A stretch of DNA of 64,000 nucleotides from Escherichia coli O157:H7 (GTDB taxonomy: Bacteria; Pseudomonadota; Gammaproteobacteria; Enterobacterales; Enterobacteriaceae). Both the position numbers and the translations under genes were made by a program. Under the pieces are notes generated by a model. It worked only from the letters and a program-made list of their open reading frames with translations. It had not been told where the DNA came from and did no database searches. Each line of letters begins with the position of its first letter. The first letter of the stretch is position 1. Where the stretch lies: the NCBI RefSeq assembly GCF_013167455.1, contig NZ_CP038328.1; one strand, 5' to 3'. Positions 16,863-27,474 of the stretch are shown piece by piece.

Positions 16863-18592
16863 AGAATTAAGAGAGCATCGTCCGGATCAAGAGATGAGAG
16901 GAAATCGTCGGGTTCTTTGAGCATTGCCCGACCGATCGCCATAATCAGCGCAACCGCACCATCGATTTTGTTTTCCGCCTGCTCCTTGACAGGCTTCACC
17001 ACATCATCGTTACCCGGAATGGTTTTGCCGACCACGTTGCCGATACACCAGGTCATGATGGGATTGCCGTCATGATGAAAGCGCCCCGATTCAATCGCCG
17101 CTTCCAGCTCTTTCATCGGATCGGACATGTTGGTGTAGTTCTGAATGATGGTGATGGGGTTCAGGTCTTCATCAGCAAGGTCATGCGACAGCCCGGTCGC
17201 CCCGAAGGGGTCGATGGGTGACTCACTGACCGGGCTGATTTTGTTCGCCGCTTTGGCCTCCTCGAGGATGTACCGATAATCCACCTCCGCACCAGCGGTA
17301 ACAGTCAGAACGCCCATTTCCACCCATTTCTGAAAGCGTTCGGCTGTCCGGCGATCTTCATTTTTCTCGACGCTGTACACCGTGTCATACGGTACCCAGA
17401 AACGCGGGGCCACACTGTAGTAATGCGTTTTACCGTCAATCTCGCGGGTATAAAGTCGCGCCATGCTGTTCATATCCAGCTTACGCGCCAGGTCAAAGGC
17501 CAGAATGCACGGCTGCCCCTCGAACTGCTCAAGGGTCAGTGATTTATCCTCGCAGCTCTGCCAGCTCACCAGGTTGAAATACGCCGAACGCGCCGACACC
17601 CAGATATTGAGGTGTTTTGTTTTAAAGACGTTTGCCAGACGGGCGTTATTTTTCGCACGCTGCTGCTGACTTAACAAAAATTCGCGATAAACCGACACGC
17701 CAATATTTGGATTGGCTTTTTCCAGCACCTGCGGGTCGATCCAGTCGTCACCTTCATCAACGGTATAGATGATCCCGAACAGTTCATCGTTGGGTACCGA
17801 ACCGTTGAGCATCTCGATAACTTCCCGCCGCTTGTCGTAGCACGGCCCCTCAATGTTGTACCCGGCGGTGGTGATGGCCCACATCAGTGGCTGACGTCGC
17901 GCCCCCATCCCGGTAAGCATCGTGGTATAAAGCGCATCGGTGGCGTGCTCGTGATATTCATCCACCACCGCACAGTGGGGTGATGAACCATCACCAGGGT
18001 TACCGATCAGCGGTTCAAACCGCGCACCATCCTCCGGACGGTTCATGTTTGAGGCGTTAACCTCAATCCCGAACGCTTCCGTCAGCATGGGTGTGCGTTT
18101 ACACATCAGTCGTGCCGGACGAAAGACTTCCCATGCCTGTTTCTCCGTCGTGGCACCGGAATACACTTCCGCGCCGAACTCGTTATCACAGGCAAAACAA
18201 TACAGGGCGACACCGGCAGAGATTGCCGATTTGCCGTTCTTACGGGGGATTTCGGTATACACCTCCCGGAAGCGGCGCAGCCGGGAGCCTTTATTGACCC
18301 AGCCAAACGCGCAGCAGATCACAAAGAGCTGCCACGGCTCCAGCGTGATGGGCATCCGTTTGAATGCCCACTCACCCTTGGTGTGCGGCAACAGCTGAAT
18401 AAATTTCGCGGCCCGTTCAGCCAGGTCCTTGTCGAAGCGGTAACGAAACGACTTACTTTTTTCCGCCATCAGGTCATCAAGATGGCGCTGGCAGGCCTGA
18501 ATCACAAACTGGCAGGCCACAATCTTTCCGCGCACGACATCACGGGCATACTGATTTGCAGCATTTACGTTGGGGTAAGATTTCCGGCTCAT
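16859..18592 (-). CDS. Terminase large subunit
   Basis: 577 aa, family-level recognition. Confidence 0.9.
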
Positions 18593-19092
18593 GATTCGAT
18601 AATTTTCAGAAACGGGTTAGTGGCTTTCTTCTGCCCCGCCAGGCCAATCAGACGCTGGCGGCTGCTGGGGTCGAGTCCGAGCATTGCCCCCGTACTGCTC
18701 ATCTCGGACTCCTGTTCTTTTTTGGCGGTCAGCTCCGGATTTTTGACCATGCCGCCCATTGCACCGGTGATGGTGTTGCCCTGTCTGGCAATATTTTTCA
18801 CGGCACGTCGCCAGAACTCATAGGCCACGCACCACCGCTCAAGCACCGCGAGGTCAGTCACGCACAGCAGGCCCTGACCGCAGAGTTCTTTGGTTGTCAG
18901 TTGCCACATGATCGTGGCGAGAGGGAGATCTTCTTCAGCGAACCACTCCGGTGGCTCAACACCTTTGATGGGCGTAAAAACAGGTTCATCTTTGTTCAGG
19001 GCTCGCTTGCCGGGGTTTCCGGCCAGCGCCTTGCGCGCCGTTGGCTTGGGGCGACGCCCGGAACGCCCCGCCGTTCCAGCCATATGCGGCAC
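18589..19092 (-). CDS. Terminase small subunit (P27-like)
   Basis: 167 aa basic N-terminus, directly upstream of the large subunit. Confidence 0.75.
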
Positions 19093-19209
19093 TCCTGGTT
19101 AAATTTCATTTTTCGCGGGTATAAAAAAACGATGGGGCGGGCAGTCCGGAAGACGTCAGGTCACAGGGATTTGACCCGCCCCTCCCCTCTGGCAGTGGGA
19201 ACTGGTTCT
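19092..19209. other. Candidate cos region between HNH endonuclease and terminase small subunit
   Basis: GC-rich 117-bp gap containing ggggcggg ... cccgcccc inverted repeat; HNH-TerS-TerL arrangement is typical of HK97-type cos packaging. Confidence 0.3.
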
Positions 19210-19658
19210 TACTTCAGCCGTTCACGGGCCGTCTTCGCCTTATGACACGGCCAGCACAGGCTCTGCAGATTGCTGTCGGCATCAGTGCCGCCATGCGCTT
19301 TAGGGATGATGTGGTCAACGGTTTTCGCCTCGCGCACCACACCGGCACGCAAACACAACTGACACAGGCCTTTGTCACGCTTTAGTACACGCCCCCGGAT
19401 AACATCCCATTTCGAACCATAACCGCGCTGGTGTCGGGACTGGCCTGGCTTGTATTGCTTCCAGCCCTCGCTTTTGTGGCTTTCGCAATAACCTGACGGG
19501 TCAGTCGTGGTATGGCGGCAGCCGCGAACTCGGCAGGCTTTTGGGGTTCGTGGTGGCATATGTACTCCAATGAAGAAGCTACCGACATAGCCTCCTCCAT
19601 TCGTCGTGAAACTATTTTCATCTACCCAGTAATGAATTCTTTGAAGAGTTGTAATCAA
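19209..19658 (-). CDS. HNH endonuclease (packaging-associated)
   Basis: 149 aa with Cys-rich zinc motifs and DHIIPKAHGG...N...C HNH signature. Confidence 0.85.
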   Translation of the reverse strand: MITTLQRIHYWVDENSFTTNGGGYVGSFFIGVHMPPRTPKACRVRGCRHTTTDPSGYCESHKSEGWKQYKPGQSRHQRGYGSKWDVIRGRVLKRDKGLCQLCLRAGVVREAKTVDHIIPKAHGGTDADSNLQSLCWPCHKAKTARERLK

Positions 19659-19678
19659 TACAACTCGCTAATGGAGAG

Positions 19679-19702
19679 GCTTGTCTCACACGTGAGACAA
19701 GC
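19679..19702. promoter_or_regulatory. 11-bp inverted repeat with 2-bp spacer (gcttgtctcac ac gtgagacaagc)
   Basis: Near-perfect dyad 20 bp upstream of the HNH start in the divergent HNH/bor intergenic region; candidate protein-binding site. Confidence 0.4.
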
Positions 19703-20084
19703 TTCCTGTTTGATTTACTGGACACTATAGAAGGACAGAATGCCTTCCTCACTCGAATCACATCAATTAAGGAGGTTCAACATGTTTCATTCCACAAGTC
19801 ATCAGGCTGTAATTATGGCAGCATCAGTTTGTGCCACAGACCTTTTCCGCTTCACTTTGAGCCTGATTCATTTCTACCTGACCGGCTCGCCTCTATCTTT
19901 TTAATCCCCGCTTTATCCAAATTGCATTGCCAGAATGCCGACAACAGACTGACATTCAAATCCTGACTACCTCCAATAGTCTGACCGTACACCTATATAG
20001 TTTTAATTTTCATCAATCCATTTAACTATCGTTTAATTGTTGTCACATAGGATTCTGCCGTTTTTAACAATGCAGGATAATAAG

Positions 20085-20378
20085 ATGAAAAAAATGTTAT
20101 TTTCTGCCGCTCTGGCAATGCTTATTACAGGATGTGCTCAACAGACGTTTACTGTTGGAAACAAACCGACAGCAGTAACACCAAAGGAAACCATCACCCA
20201 TCATTTCTTCGTTTCGGGAATTGGACAGGAGAAAACTGTTGATGCAGCCAAAATTTGTGGCGGCGCAGAAAATGTGGTTAAAACAGAAACCCAGCAAACA
20301 TTCGTAAATGGATTGCTCGGTTTTATTACTTTAGGCATTTATACTCCGCTGGAAGCGCGGGTGTATTGCTCACAATAA
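20085..20378 (+). CDS. bor: Bor-family outer-membrane lipoprotein (serum-resistance moron)
   Basis: MKKMLFSAALAMLITGCAQQTFTV... lipobox and near-identity to lambda Bor; opposite strand to the lysis genes. Confidence 0.85.
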   Translation: MKKMLFSAALAMLITGCAQQTFTVGNKPTAVTPKETITHHFFVSGIGQEKTVDAAKICGGAENVVKTETQQTFVNGLLGFITLGIYTPLEARVYCSQ

Positions 20379-20409: not shown

Positions 20410-20868
20410 CTATCTGCACTGCTCATTAATATACTTCTGGGTTCCTTCCAGTTGTTTTTGCATAGTGATCAGCCTCTCTCTGAGGGTGAAATAATCCCGT
20501 TCAGCGGTGTCTGCCAGTCGGGGGGAGGCTGCATTATCCACGCCGGAGGCGGTGGTGGCTTCACGCACTGACTGACAGACTGCTTTGATGTGCAACCGAC
20601 GACGACCAGCGGCAACATCATCACGCAGAGCATCATTTTCAGCTTTCGCATCAGCTAACTCCTTCGTGTATTTTGCATCGAGCGCAGCAACATCACGCTG
20701 ACGCATCTGCATGTCAGTAATTGTCGAGTTCGCCAGCTTCAGTTCTCTGGCATTTTTGTCGCGCTGGGCTTTGTAGGTAATGGCGTTATCGCGGTAATGA
20801 TTAGCCCATGACAAGCAAACGATGATGCAGATAACCAGAGCGGAAATAATCGCGGTTACTCTGCTCAT
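20410..20868 (-). CDS. Rz: Spanin inner-membrane subunit Rz
   Basis: 152 aa, lambda Rz-like. Confidence 0.85.
20469..20651 (-). CDS. Rz1: Spanin outer-membrane lipoprotein Rz1 (embedded in Rz in another frame)
   Basis: 60 aa [20 protein letters not shown]... lipobox followed by Pro-rich PPPPP tract, lambda Rz1-like. Confidence 0.8.
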
Positions 20869-21341
20869 ACCTCAATCTCTCTGACCGTTCCGCCTGCTTC
20901 TTTGAATTTTGCAATCAGGCTGTCAGCCTTATGCTCGAACTGACCGTAACCAGCGCCCGGCAACGAAGCCCAGATATTGCTGCAACGGTCGATAGCCTGA
21001 CGAATATCACCACGATCAATCATCGGTAAAGCGCCACGTTCTTTAATCTGCTGCAATGCCACAGCGTCCTGGCTTTTGGGGGAGAAGTCTTTCAAACCAA
21101 GCTGTTTACGGTAAGCATCCCACCAACGTGAAAGAAGCTGGTAACGTCCGGCGGCTGTTGATTTGAGTTTGGGGTTTAGCGTGACAAGTTTGCGAGGGTG
21201 ATCGGAGTAATCAGTGAAGAGTTCACCACCGACAATAACGTCATAACCGTGGTTACGTGTCGGTTGTCGTCCGTTATCCGTTCCTTCTGACCAAGCCACC
21301 ATATCAAGGAAAGCTTTACGCTGGGAATTTAGTACCTGCAT
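20865..21341 (-). CDS. R: Endolysin (lambda R-type lytic transglycosylase)
   Basis: 158 aa with near-identity to lambda R over most of its length. Confidence 0.9.
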
Positions 21342-21344
21342 AAA

Positions 21345-21680
21345 TTACTCCTTAGAGCCACCAAATTTGTTACCGATTACTCGCATTGCAGCCCCACGAA
21401 TAGCATCGACACCGATCAGCCCCACCCCACCACCAATGGCAACAGAAAGTGATTTAGGCCATCCGACATACTCAAGAGCGGATGCAAAGGTCAGCGTCAG
21501 AGCGCCACATAGCAAAATCTCGAGCGTTTTTCGCTTCCAGCCACCACCACCGCCAAAATAGGCGATGCGCAAACCAGCCATAACGATCGACATAATCACT
21601 GCACCCAGCGGTGTGTCTCCACGCCACCAGCTCTGAAACAACTCCAGCCAGTCCGGCCAGGTATTTGGGTTATGAGGCAT
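21345..21680 (-). CDS. Holin (putative)
   Basis: ORF 21345..21776; likely start MPHNPNTW... at 21680 after a GAGGTG Shine-Dalgarno; hydrophobic helices and Gly-rich segments; immediately upstream of the endolysin. Confidence 0.55.
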   Translation of the reverse strand: MPHNPNTWPDWLELFQSWWRGDTPLGAVIMSIVMAGLRIAYFGGGGGWKRKTLEILLCGALTLTFASALEYVGWPKSLSVAIGGGVGLIGVDAIRGAAMRVIGNKFGGSKE

Positions 21681-21723
21681 TTCGTCATCTCTCACCTCGC
21701 GATATTTGCGGGTGCTGTGTTGG

Positions 21724-21747
21724 AAATAAAAAGGCCACGCAACGTGG
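21724..21747 (-). terminator. Intrinsic terminator-like hairpin upstream of the holin
   Basis: ggccacg ttgc gtggcc followed by TTTTTATTT on the minus strand. Confidence 0.5.
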
Positions 21748-21816
21748 CCACCAGAATTATTTCCCCACCAGTTCACTTACCTCTTTCACCGTCTGATTAA
21801 ACCGCTCTGACTCAAG

Positions 21817-22131
21817 TTAAACACCTAACGCCCGACGCCCCAGCGCCATTGCTGCTTTTATTGTGGAACCGAATCCCATAAAGAAATCAGCAACCAGATC
21901 ACCAGGTCGACTACTGGCATTGATTATTTGCCTGAGCATATCCGCCGGTTTCTCGCACGGATGTTTACCCGGGTAGAACTGAACGGGCTTATGCGTCCTG
22001 ACATCGGTATAAGGCACGGAGACTGATACGGAGAAATAGCGCCGGTGAGATTTAAACTCATCCAGCAATTCAGAAGATTTGCAATTCAGTGAATCATGAG
22101 ATACCACCAACTGGTGGTAGGATTGTCTCAA
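21817..22131 (-). pseudogene. Remnant of a beta-class N6/N4 DNA methyltransferase (C-terminal part only)
   Basis: 104 aa ORF with ..FYPGKHPCEKPADMLRQIINASSRPGDLVADFFMGFGSTIKAAMALGRRALGV*, matching the HPxxKP and DPFxGSGTT-type AdoMet motifs, but lacking the upstream DPPY catalytic region; AT-rich foreign DNA begins right at its 5' end. Confidence 0.6.
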
Positions 22132-22301
22132 CTAGTGAGCTTTATACATTTAAGTGCGATGCACAGATAATAACCACGCCAATGGAATATCACACACAAA
22201 ATTGATAGAACACTAACAATAAGCCACAAAATAATTCACAATTTATTTTTACAGTGGATAAGTAGCAAAGTAGTGAATGTGAATAACGGCTAACTAAGAT
22301 G

Positions 22302-22330
22302 AAACAAAAAGCCCCACAATATGTGGGGCT
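22302..22330 (-). terminator. Rho-independent terminator ending the cargo cassette
   Basis: Minus strand agccccaca tatt gtggggct followed by TTTTTGTTT. Confidence 0.65.
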
Positions 22331-22388
22331 CCTTCGCGATTTATAGTAAAATAATCGATTCTCTAGCTGAAAAAATCTTTAAAAATTA

Positions 22389-22622
22389 TCAGCAATACGC
22401 AAGTTTTTTACCGTCATCCGGTACTAGTTTGATCACTACACCAGGATTCTTACGCTCTAACATCTGAGTTTGACTCCATGTAATACCAAAGGTTTCCATT
22501 GGAGATGCATTGCCAGCAAAGAGTTCGGCGACGACTTTAGCTGCCTCAATCTCTATCTGCTCATGATGTTTCATAAAAATCCCCTTGTTCAGCACTAAGC
22601 TGTAGTTGCTTCTTTGAAGCAT
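22389..22622 (-). CDS. Small hypothetical protein (cargo cassette gene 2)
   Basis: 77 aa ORF; more likely 61 aa from ATG at 22574 (MKHHEQIEIEAAKVV...) preceded by AAGGGGA Shine-Dalgarno; low GC. Confidence 0.4.
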   Translation of the reverse strand: MLQRSNYSLVLNKGIFMKHHEQIEIEAAKVVAELFAGNASPMETFGITWSQTQMLERKNPGVVIKLVPDDGKKLAYC

Positions 22623-22765
22623 AAAGGCAACAAAGTTTGTTACCTGAAGATGTATAAAGTAAAGCGTAGTACATTTTGTGTGTGCTTTGTGTGGATCCAG
22701 ATTGCATCAACTAAAAGAGGTTTTCAATACTTTTGTAATGATTCTGGAGAAATTAAGAATCTAAC

Positions 22766-23308
22766 TCACACTGATTGGTTAGGTAAAACGCTCCTAAGCA
22801 CCATTGCGCAACCACCTCGTTCGTAATCAGCAATGTACTCAAAACCACTTTCAGTATAGTATCTTATTGCCCCATCAACTGGACTAACTAAAGCTATCGA
22901 ATCAATAGATTCACCCTGAAGGTTCAGAAATCGTGCATATGCAGAGAAGCAATCCAAAACGATACCAAGCATCTGATGGTCTAGGTCTTCATGTGCATCA
23001 TTACGTTTTTCCATCCAGCAAATATGCACCGCATTTTTCGGCTTACAGTAACACCCAAATGCAAATCCAATAGGCTCCCCACGATAATAAACAACTAGTT
23101 TTATCGGGTGTTCTTCCATCATATCCATAAACACTCGCGACTTTAGTCCGGGATCCCACCGCAGTTTATTGTTAGCCTTGAGGAACTCCATATCTTTTAG
23201 TACCAGCTCGTCGGCATATACGAGCCCTAACGACTTATGAGGGAAGCGCCCTTTTAAATACTCTGCAACATTTTTAAATACTGCTGTTTGGAAGGCTTGA
23301 AACATCAT
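22766..23308 (-). CDS. Hypothetical protein with GNAT-like C-terminal signature (cargo cassette gene 1)
   Basis: 180 aa; C-terminus ..SIALVSPVDGAIRYYTESGFEYIADY.. resembles GNAT motif B, but no canonical Q/RxxGxG acetyl-CoA loop; roughly 40 percent GC against about 52 percent in flanking phage DNA. Confidence 0.55.
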   Translation of the reverse strand: MMFQAFQTAVFKNVAEYLKGRFPHKSLGLVYADELVLKDMEFLKANNKLRWDPGLKSRVFMDMMEEHPIKLVVYYRGEPIGFAFGCYCKPKNAVHICWMEKRNDAHEDLDHQMLGIVLDCFSAYARFLNLQGESIDSIALVSPVDGAIRYYTESGFEYIADYERGGCAMVLRSVLPNQSV

Positions 23309-23337
23309 GTCGATCCAGACGAGACGAAAGTTTAAAT

Positions 23338-23367
23338 TCTACCTACTCGCCGAATACCATTTCAATG
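23338..23367 (-). promoter_or_regulatory. Candidate sigma70 promoter for the cargo cassette
   Basis: Minus strand TTGAAA, 18-bp spacer, TAGAAT, about 25 nt upstream of the 23308 start codon. Confidence 0.35.
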
Positions 23368-23386
23368 CCACACATCTAAAATTCCG

Positions 23387-23414
23387 AAAAAAAACCCGCA
23401 CATCAGCGGGTTTT
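23387..23414 (-). terminator. tR'-like intrinsic terminator downstream of the late promoter
   Basis: Minus strand aaaacccgc tgatgt gcggg followed by eight T; about 50 nt downstream of the predicted late promoter. Confidence 0.75.
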
Positions 23415-23459
23415 CTACTTTTTATTAAAGCCGGACACACAATGCCTATCATTGAGAAA

Positions 23460-23488
23460 ATATTATCCATTTTTTTTGAAAAATGCAA
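23460..23488 (-). promoter_or_regulatory. Late promoter pR'-like (Q-dependent antitermination site)
   Basis: Minus strand TTGCAT, 17-bp spacer, TAATAT located 30-60 bp downstream of the Q stop codon. Confidence 0.6.
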
Positions 23489-23519
23489 GCATCATGTCGC
23501 CATTTTCGTCGAAAATCAT

Positions 23520-24272
23520 TCATCTCGTCACTTTCCTCAATTGTGTCTCAGCATACGCTTCTTCCTGCCAGCACTTTGTAACCAGTTTATCAATGACATC
23601 TGCATATCCTTTGTACCACTGATAATCCGTCAGGTCTGGTACCAGCTTCTGGACATGAAGCCGCGCCAGTGTGGTTGGTAAACGGCTAAACCGGTTTCCA
23701 TTGCAACGCCCACAAACCTTATAAACAGGCGTGCCATGAAGCCTGGTTCTTTTTTCATCCAGGACAATACCTTTACCCTTACACCCTCTGCACGCTGTGC
23801 TGACTTCTCCCTTACCATGACAATGCTGACACAGTTCCTTCACCCACTCTTCCTTGATAACAGATTCCCCGCTTCTGGAGTGTTTCACCACCTCGCGCAA
23901 TACATCATGAAATCCAGTACCAGCACAATGCTCACAGCGAGCCTTACTTGCCGCAGACCTGGAATAATCAGCAAAGGCAAAATTCACAAGGTAAGGAATG
24001 ATCTGTAGCCGGGTTTCTTCACTCAATTTGTTCAATGTCGGGTTATCCAGTGCCATCGCGTAATTGAGCAGACCTTCAATCGCAAACTGAGGATCCTGAA
24101 CACCAACTTTTGCCAGGAATAAGGCAAACCCAAGCGGTGCTTTCGACTGCACCATCCCCTGCGCAGCCATTACATCCGTAATTGTTAAACCACCAGAGCC
24201 TGTCGCCGGTGCGTCATCGCTCAATTTTGGAGATTTTGGGGAGTAATATTTCGGTAAGGCTTCAAAGTTCAT
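23520..24272 (-). CDS. Q: Late-gene antitermination protein Q
   Basis: 250 aa with CxxC...CxxC zinc-binding motifs (CEHCAGTG, CQHCHGKG, CRGCKGKG), followed by promoter and terminator. Confidence 0.85.
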   Translation of the reverse strand: MNFEALPKYYSPKSPKLSDDAPATGSGGLTITDVMAAQGMVQSKAPLGFALFLAKVGVQDPQFAIEGLLNYAMALDNPTLNKLSEETRLQIIPYLVNFAFADYSRSAASKARCEHCAGTGFHDVLREVVKHSRSGESVIKEEWVKELCQHCHGKGEVSTACRGCKGKGIVLDEKRTRLHGTPVYKVCGRCNGNRFSRLPTTLARLHVQKLVPDLTDYQWYKGYADVIDKLVTKCWQEEAYAETQLRKVTR

Positions 24273-24285
24273 GCTCGTTCTCCAC

Positions 24286-25281
24286 TTACGCCAGTACGCC
24301 TATTGCCAGCGCACGATCGATAAAACGAAATATCAGCTCCAGCTGGGAGCCATACTTCTCTTCAAATGCCACGGTATCCGCATGCAGCTCGTCGTGATGC
24401 TTTCTGCACAAAGGCAACACAAAGAGGTCATGCGCTTTTGTACCCATTCCTCCCTGACCGTGACCTATCAGGTGGTGGGGATCATCAGCAGGCTTTCCAC
24501 AACATGCACACGGCTGTGTCTTAACCCAGCGCGTGTACTTTTCATTAACCCAGCGGCGACGTTTTGGGCGTAACATAAAAGACTCCGGCGACTCAGGATC
24601 CACTTTCAGCGCCAGCACCTTTTTCGCTTTATCCTGGATGATGCTGGTGGCAGGAACCGAAGGCACAAGGTCACTTTCCCGGGTAACAGACGGCACAACA
24701 GGCTTCGGTAATCTAAGTGCCTTACGGGCTGCACTTTCCGGTAAGGCATCCGCCAGGTCATTACGAATCAGCCACCAGCACAGTTCCGGCATTGTCACAA
24801 CGTGACTGTCATCAAAACCGAGATCCCGACGCACAACAGACAACACCCAGCGGGCACAGTTATCCGTTGCCATTGATTCCAGCCGTTCCGTGAACTGATC
24901 GCGCAGCTGGTTATCGCAGTGCCAGCACAGACGGATTGCGCCCGGAGCGTGTCGCATTGTGGTCATGTTCTCGCTGTGCCAGTCGGAATGAGGCCACTGG
25001 CAGCCTTTTTCACGAAGTAACCAGCTTTCAAGACATTCCACGCCACCAGCACGACGGATCACTGCCTCATTGCGGAACACGGCCCGAACGGCAGGATCAT
25101 CCGCCAGCGGTTGTGATGCCGCCGGAACGGCACCACTGGCGAAAGATGAATAACGTTCCGGCTCAGGCTCCAGCAGGACACGCCCCTGCATAAACAGGGG
25201 CATCAGCTCTGAACCTGGCCTGAACAATACGATCCCCATACGCGGGGCAATTTCAGGAGTCAGTAGTGCTCTCACGGTCAC
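24286..25281 (-). CDS. DUF968-family prophage protein (YdfU-like) with HNH-like C-terminus
   Basis: 331 aa; C-terminal ..QPCACCGKPADDPHHLIGHGQGG...CRKHHDELH; typical gene upstream of Q in lambdoid prophages. Confidence 0.7.
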   Translation of the reverse strand: MTVRALLTPEIAPRMGIVLFRPGSELMPLFMQGRVLLEPEPERYSSFASGAVPAASQPLADDPAVRAVFRNEAVIRRAGGVECLESWLLREKGCQWPHSDWHSENMTTMRHAPGAIRLCWHCDNQLRDQFTERLESMATDNCARWVLSVVRRDLGFDDSHVVTMPELCWWLIRNDLADALPESAARKALRLPKPVVPSVTRESDLVPSVPATSIIQDKAKKVLALKVDPESPESFMLRPKRRRWVNEKYTRWVKTQPCACCGKPADDPHHLIGHGQGGMGTKAHDLFVLPLCRKHHDELHADTVAFEEKYGSQLELIFRFIDRALAIGVLA

Positions 25282-26501: not shown

Positions 26502-26824
26502 ACTTTCAGGTCCCTCTCATGTAACCAGTGGGTTGCACGCAGCCTTGCGTTTTCCTCACCGGCAAGCAGTGCGCGGATAATCCCGACCGCCTCGCTGTCG
26601 TCGTCCTTCACCGCGGTATGAAGCGTTATCCCCCGGGCCACGCCACGCTTTATCGTGATGACGCCTTTTTTCTCCAGTGCGCGAAGATGCTCCACCGCTG
26701 CATTCACTGAACGGTATCCCAGCATGGTTGCCACCTCCTGATTGGTTGGCGGGAAGCCACGTTCTTTCTGATAAGAAATCAGCATATCCAGCACCTGCTG
26801 CTGGCATTGAGTTAACGTCGTCAT
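26498..26824 (-). CDS. LexA DNA-binding-domain-like protein lacking the S24 peptidase domain
   Basis: 108 aa; ..QQQVLDMLISYQKERGFPPTNQEVATMLGYRSVNAAVEHLRALEKKGVITIKRGVARGITL.. aligns along the LexA N-terminal winged-helix domain; no Ser/Lys peptidase region. Confidence 0.65.
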   Translation of the reverse strand: MTTLTQCQQQVLDMLISYQKERGFPPTNQEVATMLGYRSVNAAVEHLRALEKKGVITIKRGVARGITLHTAVKDDDSEAVGIIRALLAGEENARLRATHWLHERDLKV

Positions 26825-27474
26825 GCCGCCATCTCCCTGACCAGTTTTTCTGCCTGCTGGCGAACCTGCGCCAGAAAGGCCTCACCACATGCCTCAAGTT
26901 CATAGCGCCCGATGTAGCTGATTGCCGGTCCCTTCCAGGTCTTGTCGAAAACAGCAATAGCACCAGCGAAGAAAGCGCCTGTCGGCACCTGCTTCTCATC
27001 CTTCGGGATAAACCAGGCAGGCAGTTCAAAACCAATACGCCCGCGAATAAAAGCAATATGATCTGCATCTTCCGGCCACCACACTTCGCTGGTGGCAGCT
27101 TTGATCAGGAAAACATAGCGCCCGCCTTTATCACGCATGGCACTGGCATGCTTCATGATGTAACGCATGCCGGTGATGTATTGCCCCTCATGCTGACTGG
27201 CGCGGCTGTATGGGGGATTACCAAAGGCAGCACCTTTAAGCTCCGCAAGACGTTCTGACCAGTCATGCGCCAGCGCGTTGTCTTCCGCAGTGTAATAAGC
27301 GGCACATTTGGCGTTATCACCGTCAGTGAACAGATCCAGAACAAACGGGCCAAACAGGGTGTTAATTCCCCAGAAAATGTTGTCCGGCGTGCGCCACTGA
27401 TCGCCCACTTCCTTCAGTTCATGGGCTGGTTTGTTCCGCAGCTCCACCAGCGCCTGGCAATATTTATTACTCAT
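26821..27474 (-). CDS. Phage N6-adenine DNA methyltransferase (Dam-like)
   Basis: Start MSNKYCQ... at 27474 (TAATG overlap with upstream gene); contains NPPY catalytic motif (AAFGNPPYS). Confidence 0.8.
   Translation of the reverse strand: MSNKYCQALVELRNKPAHELKEVGDQWRTPDNIFWGINTLFGPFVLDLFTDGDNAKCAAYYTAEDNALAHDWSERLAELKGAAFGNPPYSRASQHEGQYITGMRYIMKHASAMRDKGGRYVFLIKAATSEVWWPEDADHIAFIRGRIGFELPAWFIPKDEKQVPTGAFFAGAIAVFDKTWKGPAISYIGRYELEACGEAFLAQVRQQAEKLVREMAA

Follow-up and report, generated by a model that had tools for sequence, protein, structure and literature searches.

An intact DNA methyltransferase gene located between the late antiterminator gene Q and the holin gene is found in Shigella phage SfV, in vB_EcoM-720R4, in Stx2a phages and in about 900 Escherichia coli records. 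The nearest intact layout is that of SfV and vB_EcoM-720R4, where Q is followed by tR', a small ORF, the methyltransferase, a terminator and the holin gene. The intact homologues were found to be 350-352 aa in length, either as translated genes (O2:H6 and R14) or as full-length matches covering residues 1-350 (SfV, 720R4, a Stx2a phage and Citrobacter phage phiNP). These proteins carry DPPY at residues 35-38 and FFMGSGST at residues 309-316, which is the motif order of the beta class. All six relatives examined are about 350 aa long, and full-length relatives are therefore not naturally as short as the 104-aa product described below.

Morons and the mosaic joints of lambdoid phages are a concept that arose from the comparative genomics of HK97 and HK022, and module exchange at such joints, the process behind the present locus, is textbook phage evolution. 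The remnant reported here has already been flagged by RefSeq and is an ordinary scar of phage gene shuffling, of a kind that is already known, and our search of the literature found no paper discussing this particular methyltransferase remnant. What we add is modest and concerns its finer anatomy, namely a decayed relic of the 5' end, the loss of an internal segment at a short repeat, and point lesions that came later. We consider it probable that the locus is a pseudogene in two pieces, without function, which derives from the late-operon DNA methyltransferase gene of an SfV-like prophage.

Late region of the prophage

The window is the whole stretch of 64,000 nucleotides of E. coli O157:H7 that was analysed. 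The region of interest in it is 100% identical to many E. coli O157:H7 chromosomes, and the structural genes of the prophage in which it lies are 97.6% identical to those of SfV. The genes and signals around the remnant are as follows.

20410-21680, minus strand: holin, endolysin and Rz genes
21345-21680, minus strand: lambda-family holin gene (Pfam Phage_holin_3_1, E 5.9e-27; PGAP coordinates)
21733-21749, minus strand: terminator hairpin just past the original methyltransferase stop and ahead of the holin gene; SfV has an annotated terminator at the same place
about 22100-23400: low-GC stretch within the late region
23389-23414, minus strand: tR'-type terminator hairpin 3' of Q, common to SfV (annotated terminator there) and the relatives of the low-GC cassette
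23520-24272, minus strand: late antiterminator Q, 250 aa (Pfam Antiterm PF03589, E 8e-53; PGAP)
24286-25281, minus strand: DUF968 gene
26821-27474, minus strand: intact Dam-family N6-adenine methyltransferase of the early region (PF05869; NPPY present)

The holin gene is the first lysis gene downstream of the methyltransferase remnant. GC content drops from about 0.49 to 0.35-0.40 across 22100-23450, and for the low-GC cassette it is 0.35-0.43 compared with about 0.5 in the flanks. The second, intact Dam-like methyltransferase with NPPY that the preliminary description had placed at 26821-27474 is indeed present, as its product matches PF05869 with 153.6 bits (cut-off 28.1; E 5e-45), its translation contains GNPPYS, and PGAP annotates it as an intact phage N-6-adenine-methyltransferase CDS. 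The prophage has lost its late methyltransferase, and the Dam-family gene of its early region is still intact.

The leader between PR' and tR' (23389-23490, minus strand) is about 75% identical to that of SfV and is more diverged than the adjoining Q gene. It retains a conserved ACGATGGGCATTGTATGT-like block which was also observed in cassette relatives with other Q genes. Rfam gave weak terminator-type matches alone on this leader (isrK and leader families), all under their gathering scores, and over the whole of 21300-24300 nothing came near any gathering score, the weak matches being terminator hairpins.

On the other side of the lysis genes, a bor/iss lipoprotein gene (20037-20378, plus strand, hence opposite in orientation; named Iss by PGAP) sits in a pocket of low GC (about 0.39) that separates the Rz gene from the HNH and terminase genes. 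This gene is a classic lambdoid moron. In O157:H7 strain F1273 (locus L001, 2798-4011), IS1203 lies between a tail/baseplate gene and iss, where the window has an HNH endonuclease and terminase (about 18500-19700). Some O157 strains thus carry an IS-rearranged and probably defective version of the prophage, whereas the version in the window retains packaging genes.

Anatomy of the methyltransferase remnant

The remnant is made up of a well-preserved 3' part, which contains the 104-codon ORF, and a decayed 5' relic lying upstream of it.

21757-22120, minus strand: 3' part of the gene, well preserved, codons ~229-350 (91% identity to residues 227-350 by tblastn, E 8e-70)
21817-22131, minus strand: 104-codon ORF with a TTG start and a premature TAA, corresponding to residues 227-330 of the 350-aa methyltransferase
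21817-21819, minus strand: nonsense codon TAA; GAA or GAG (Glu331) in all other alleles, including the truncated copy of strain Ec-050
21872, minus strand: Ser313 to Phe in the AdoMet-binding motif (FFMGSGST to FFMGFGST), in O157-type copies only
21999, minus strand: W271R, in O157-type copies only
22046, minus strand: L255H, in O157-type copies only
22076-22118, minus strand: stretch next to the junction with five derived substitutions, common to both truncated lineages and found in no intact allele
22121-22256 (136 bp), minus strand: decayed relic of the 5' end of the gene, codons 4-49, 69% identical to the SfV-type allele, with indels
22154-22165, minus strand: site of the former DPPY codons (GAT CCG CCT TAC), now TGT GCA TCG CAC (Cys-Ala-Ser-His)

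The ORF at 21817-22131, with its TTG start, had been described from the sequence as the C-terminal part of a beta-class N6/N4 methyltransferase without the catalytic region, and this assignment holds. Its product matches Pfam N6_N4_Mtase (PF01555) with 65.8 bits (cut-off 26.7; E 7.3e-18) over profile positions 156-209 of 221 only, which is the C-terminal part of the profile, and it aligns with residues 227-330 of the intact homologues, so that the DPPY of those homologues at 35-38 falls outside it. Catalytic motif IV, (D/S)PP(Y/F), is absent from the ORF, and the homologous position in the relic reads Cys-Ala-Ser-His. No complete frame of ~350 codons with a start codon was observed, as the remnant has no recognisable ATG or ribosome-binding site; a TAG stands in frame directly 5' of the TTG, and no AGGAGG-like sequence precedes it. 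A tblastn search of the 64-kb window for residues 1-230 of the methyltransferase elsewhere returned noise only (best E 0.29). PGAP annotates a pseudogene here, 'incomplete; missing N-terminus'. The best PHROG match of the remnant is phrog_6952, 'DNA methyltransferase', a profile 181 positions long that is matched at 59-161; this suggests that phrog_6952 was built from partial or truncated ORFs of this methyltransferase gene.

The 3' part was also aligned with the SfV, 720R4, O2:H6 and R14 alleles, and the 3' 360 nt of the window copy are nearly identical to the vB_EcoM-720R4 allele. The E331stop change (GAA to TAA) removes 20 codons, and the 60 nt past this premature stop are still read in frame, with the original stop TAA at 21757-21759. 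AdoMet motif I, which takes the form FxGxG or D-x-F-x-G-S-G-[ST]-T in the family, reads DFFMGFGST in the window; both glycines are kept, and the serine found in 7/7 other alleles compared is replaced by phenylalanine. All four O157-specific changes in the tail are amino-acid-changing or nonsense. The earlier view of the ORF as the dead remnant of a phage methyltransferase beside imported low-GC DNA is supported.

Upstream of the ORF, the relic at 22121-22256 aligns with nt 9-145 of the intact methyltransferase gene; strand and order agree between the two, and the match stops at the junction with the 3' part. It contains two in-frame stops and several indels, and its substitutions are AT-biased (21 GC to AT against 10 AT to GC). 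A local alignment of 22119-22305 with the segment that is replaced relative to 720R4 scored 33, compared with 10.7 +/- 1.3 for shuffles. Against dinucleotide shuffles (10.4 +/- 1.4, maximum 17) the same score of 33 gives a z of about 16, and when a 14-nt exact word is left out the score is still 25 against 10.1 +/- 1.2. A blastn search of the whole window with the 690 nt of the intact 5' end had its best match at 22255-22121 (E 1.7e-4), and nhmmer gave E 1.8e-4 on the relic. Relic identity was found to be 69% with the SfV-type allele, 60% with phiNP, 56% with the Stx2a allele and 54% with that of locus L037, which fits descent from an SfV-type gene and not a shared base composition. The homology is weak, at 64-69% identity and E about 2e-4 over the whole window, and the weight that can be given to it comes partly from its exact adjacency, its strand and its colinearity.

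The two surviving pieces, codons 4-49 and ~229-350, meet at 22120/22121. This point falls in an imperfect repeat, which the intact gene has as GTTGGGACAATCA at nt 133-145 and as ACTGGAACAACCA at about nt 678-690. As the 5' relic is present between the low-GC cassette and the ORF, the missing middle of the gene (codons ~50-229, about 540 bp) is an internal deletion and not the edge of the insertion.

A simpler account, which is that of the preliminary description, needs one event only: the cassette took the place of the entire 5' part of the gene, and its edge would then fall at the 5' end of the ORF, at about 22131. The end of megablast similarity to intact alleles at 22118, the drop in GC at about the same place and the PGAP label 'missing N-terminus' all speak for it, but the adjoining 136 bp upstream are colinear with codons 4-49, score far above shuffles and are the best match in the window, and the homology of the cassette to its own relatives ends at 22383-22386 and not at 22131. 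We therefore regard this account as improbable. The 5' end of the ORF is not where the foreign DNA begins, since 22121-22256, although AT-rich, corresponds by blastn, nhmmer and shuffle scores to methyltransferase codons, and the 5' relic with its former DPPY site intervenes between cassette and ORF. The related proposal that the cassette replaced the 5' part of the gene is only half right: what the foreign DNA itself removed was no more than the small ORF together with the ribosome-binding site and codons 1-3 of the gene, and the proposal does apply to later transfers, in which a block entering a phage with an intact gene through the 3' remnant as its arm replaces the 5' two-thirds of that phage's gene.

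It is very improbable that the similarity at 22121-22256 is a chance match of AT-rich DNA and that all of 22119-23388 is foreign. The identity of only 64-69% with several gaps would be compatible with chance, and so would the failure of tblastn to find anything at 22121-22256 and the recovery of only the 14-nt exact word under standard blastn scoring; set against this are the shuffle scores with and without that word, the shared strand and order with an end exactly at the junction, the better fit of the SfV-type allele than of three other alleles, and the lack of any such similarity 3' of the cassette in eight relatives. That the 104-aa ORF encodes a functional small protein, such as a fragment made from the late operon that binds AdoMet or has a regulatory role, is scarcely credible, for although it belongs to the late transcription unit and most of the AdoMet-binding region is retained in it, it begins at a TTG immediately after an in-frame stop with no AGGAGG-like sequence, lacks the catalytic motif, ends at a different place in the two carrier lineages with the nonsense codon only in O157-type copies, and has four O157-specific changes that all alter or terminate the protein, one of them at the GSG serine.

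The two-piece pseudogene reading leaves one stretch to be accounted for. The substitutions in the 43 bp at 22076-22118 go with a clean split of the records searched, 97 carriers standing at >=95% identity and the 903 others at <=94.4%. Divergence over these 43 bp is 12%, which lies between the 31% of the relic and the roughly 0% of the tail, and a model of an old pseudogene with a refreshed tail does not predict it. Four of the five substitutions alter amino acids at positions conserved in all intact alleles. Inheritance of these variants from a known divergent allele was considered and rejected, as they are absent from the alleles of about 900 E. coli records, of Stx2a phages and of phiNP.

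The low-GC cassette and its two genes

The cassette lies between the tR' hairpin and the relic and has its own candidate signals.

22257-23388, minus strand: imported low-GC block ('cassette') that replaced an SfV orf47-type small ORF and the methyltransferase start
22306-22334, minus strand: terminator-like hairpin closing the cassette, 13-bp stem and T-run; hairpin at the same position in L029 and L012
22389-22574, minus strand: orf61, a 61-codon small partner gene that follows orf180 in the loci checked
22766-23308, minus strand: orf180, GNAT-fold protein (AlphaFold pLDDT 87; Foldseek; phrog_11949, unknown function)
23336-23365, minus strand: promoter-like site TTGAAA-18-TAGAAT, 10/12 consensus positions; hexamers conserved in L029 and L031

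Towards Q, the sequence remains similar to SfV and 720R4 across PR' and the tR' hairpin, and the similarity ends after the T-run of the hairpin at about 23388. On the methyltransferase side, neither 22257-22305 nor 22257-22388 was similar to the region upstream of the intact gene (score 7, shuffle mean 6.9), and the foreign DNA therefore abuts codon 4. A hint from MAFFT of upstream-region similarity at this end of the block was discarded because its score was at shuffle level. About 0.75 kb, comprising the small ORF (SfV orf47, phrog_331), the ribosome-binding site and the start codon, has thus been replaced by 1.13 kb. Cassette relatives show 68-82% DNA identity over up to 23413-22383, with homology ending at 22383-22386. 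Repeats or IS-like ends were searched for at the cassette borders, and only short repeats at chance level were observed.

The cassette has the features of a moron, with a promoter-like site and a terminator (both consensus matches only), a distinct GC content, and presence or absence between similar phages. It is absent from SfV and 720R4 and present in vB_EcoM-689R6. This phage comes from work on phages located in clinical isolates of E. coli, and its record is therefore not taken as evidence of a viable phage.

For orf180, profile searches gave no Pfam or NCBIfam match at E <=0.1 and no PADLOC match. The AlphaFold model (pLDDT 87, pTM 0.85) was compared with Foldseek, and almost all of the best 50 PDB matches listed were members of the GNAT family (Naa50, Gcn5, RimI and SpeG); the best PDB match had E 2.4e-6 and a TM of about 0.5, and the viral library likewise returned acetyltransferases. 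The predicted structure is therefore that of a GNAT fold. In the family, the acetyl-CoA loop (Q/R-x-x-G-x-G/A) retains an invariant Q112 and a nearly invariant G115 (Q-M-L-G-I-V), and its last position is neither G nor A. The dN/dS of orf180 and orf61 is about 0.05, with dS about 1 or more, against their nearest relatives, a ratio which indicates that both cassette genes are under strong purifying selection.

Relatives of orf180 form 28 clusters in Cronobacter, Proteus, Pragia, Jinshanibacter and metagenomes, and an orf61 homologue was found 3' of the orf180 homologue in the loci with neighbours examined. The orf180-orf61 unit comes directly after Q and tR' in the examined prophages of several Enterobacterales genera. 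A Q gene is directly upstream of the cassette where this is visible (L012, L014, L029 and L037), and at least two Q families, PF03589 and PF06530, occur in this position. Downstream of the cassette, no methyltransferase relic above shuffle level was found in eight relatives (L012, L014 and L029-L034), and a tblastn search over L010-L040 found the methyltransferase only in E. coli-type loci and in L037. In L031, homology to the holin region begins 173 bp after orf61. L037 is a distant relative, and its contig (IMGVR_UViG_2897721305_000018, 2287-4882) carries a small ORF, an intact methyltransferase (63% identical), an orf180 homologue, a small ORF and then lysis-like ORFs. As the intact methyltransferase lies upstream of the cassette in this contig, the two are not mutually exclusive.

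Carrier lineages and comparison with known systems

Among 5,426 complete E. coli genomes, 97 carry the cassette, and all 97 have the same remnant. This is equally true of all 13 IMG/VR contigs on which the cassette occurs in its E. coli form, with an orf180 that is 100% identical. A second carrier lineage, represented by Ec-050 (L003), has the same 5' junction without L255H, W271R, S313F and E331stop. Across 22076-23519, a stretch that takes in the junction, relic, cassette and tR'/PR', the difference between the window and Ec-050 is only 0.7%, compared with 6.3% in the distal methyltransferase tail and 3.5% in Q. By part, the difference is 2.9% in the relic, 0.4% in orf180 and 0% in orf61. 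The first allele-specific site between the carriers is at 21995. The tail of Ec-050 is R14-like and stands beside essD/rrrD, and that of the window is 720R4-like and stands beside a lambda-type holin, so that the tail of each carrier matches the allele normally paired with its own lysis module. Since the block is near-identical and its flanks differ, it has been transferred between phage backgrounds by homologous recombination. The recombination arms would be Q/PR' on the left and the methyltransferase tail on the right, and a tail that serves as a recombination arm explains how a fresh tail can lie beside a decayed relic.

The remnant can be accounted for in five steps. The cassette would first have inserted after tR' and removed the start of the methyltransferase gene, after which the silenced gene would have decayed neutrally. 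Its middle would then have been lost in a repeat-mediated event, the tail would have been overwritten repeatedly by recombination with intact alleles of other prophages, and the point lesions of the O157 lineage would be recent. The insertion probably silenced the gene long ago; the raw divergence of the relic, 31%, is of a size comparable to the divergence at silent sites that separates the cassette genes from their nearest relatives. No intermediate with the cassette and an undeleted methyltransferase was found in the 5,426 E. coli genomes or in IMG/VR, and the order of insertion, decay and deletion is therefore one that we infer and do not prove. The tail would have no function of its own and would act only as the right homology arm when the cassette is transferred from one lambdoid or SfV-like prophage to another. 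Read in this manner, the locus offers a clear example of a dead gene fragment acting as a homology arm that carries an accessory cassette between prophages.

O157:H7 prophages of this type are without the late methyltransferase of their SfV-like relatives, and this could affect the fate of their DNA against restriction in new hosts. A bolder proposal sees in the GNAT-fold protein and the 61-residue protein encoded beside it an uncharacterised accessory system of phages (for example anti-defence, defence or host-modifying) which took over the E. coli late-operon slot of a protective methyltransferase and spreads with the dead tail as its recombination arm. We hold this to be unlikely as a whole, and the pair is a better target for study than the remnant.

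The lambdoid morons resemble the cassette in being self-contained units with a promoter-like site and a terminator, in their deviant base composition, in being present or absent among near-identical phages and in being flanked by recombination arms. The surroundings of the remnant are those of a moron placed at a mosaic joint of a late operon of the lambdoid type, in the slot that holds stx in Stx phages, and this is a well-known arrangement. In Stx phages the stx genes stand in this part of the late region and are controlled by pR' (PMC6266700).

The closest counterparts are SfV orf48 (NP_599080.1) and the 'DNA adenine methylase' of 720R4 (URC09703.1), which are the same gene in the same place in the same type of phage. 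Those genes are intact, with 350 aa and DPPY. The copy in the window lacks a start and is decayed in its 5' relic; it has lost ~540 bp by deletion and carries three missense changes as well as one nonsense codon. PGAP pseudogene records of the remnant exist for O157:H7 F1273 (E3159_RS04910) and Ec-050-T20-ESBL (LNN47_RS08110), described as 'DNA methyltransferase, incomplete; partial in the middle of a contig; missing N-terminus'; these cover the 3' piece only and record neither the 5' relic nor the internal deletion nor the premature stop. In Stx2a-converting phages the order is Q, a small ORF, a DNA methylase, tRNAs and stx2AB, with a methyltransferase homologue of 81% amino-acid identity. 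In these phages the methyltransferase and the small ORF come directly after Q and precede the accessory cargo and the lysis genes. Their methyltransferase is intact with the cargo downstream of it, whereas in the window the cargo lies upstream and the methyltransferase is dead.
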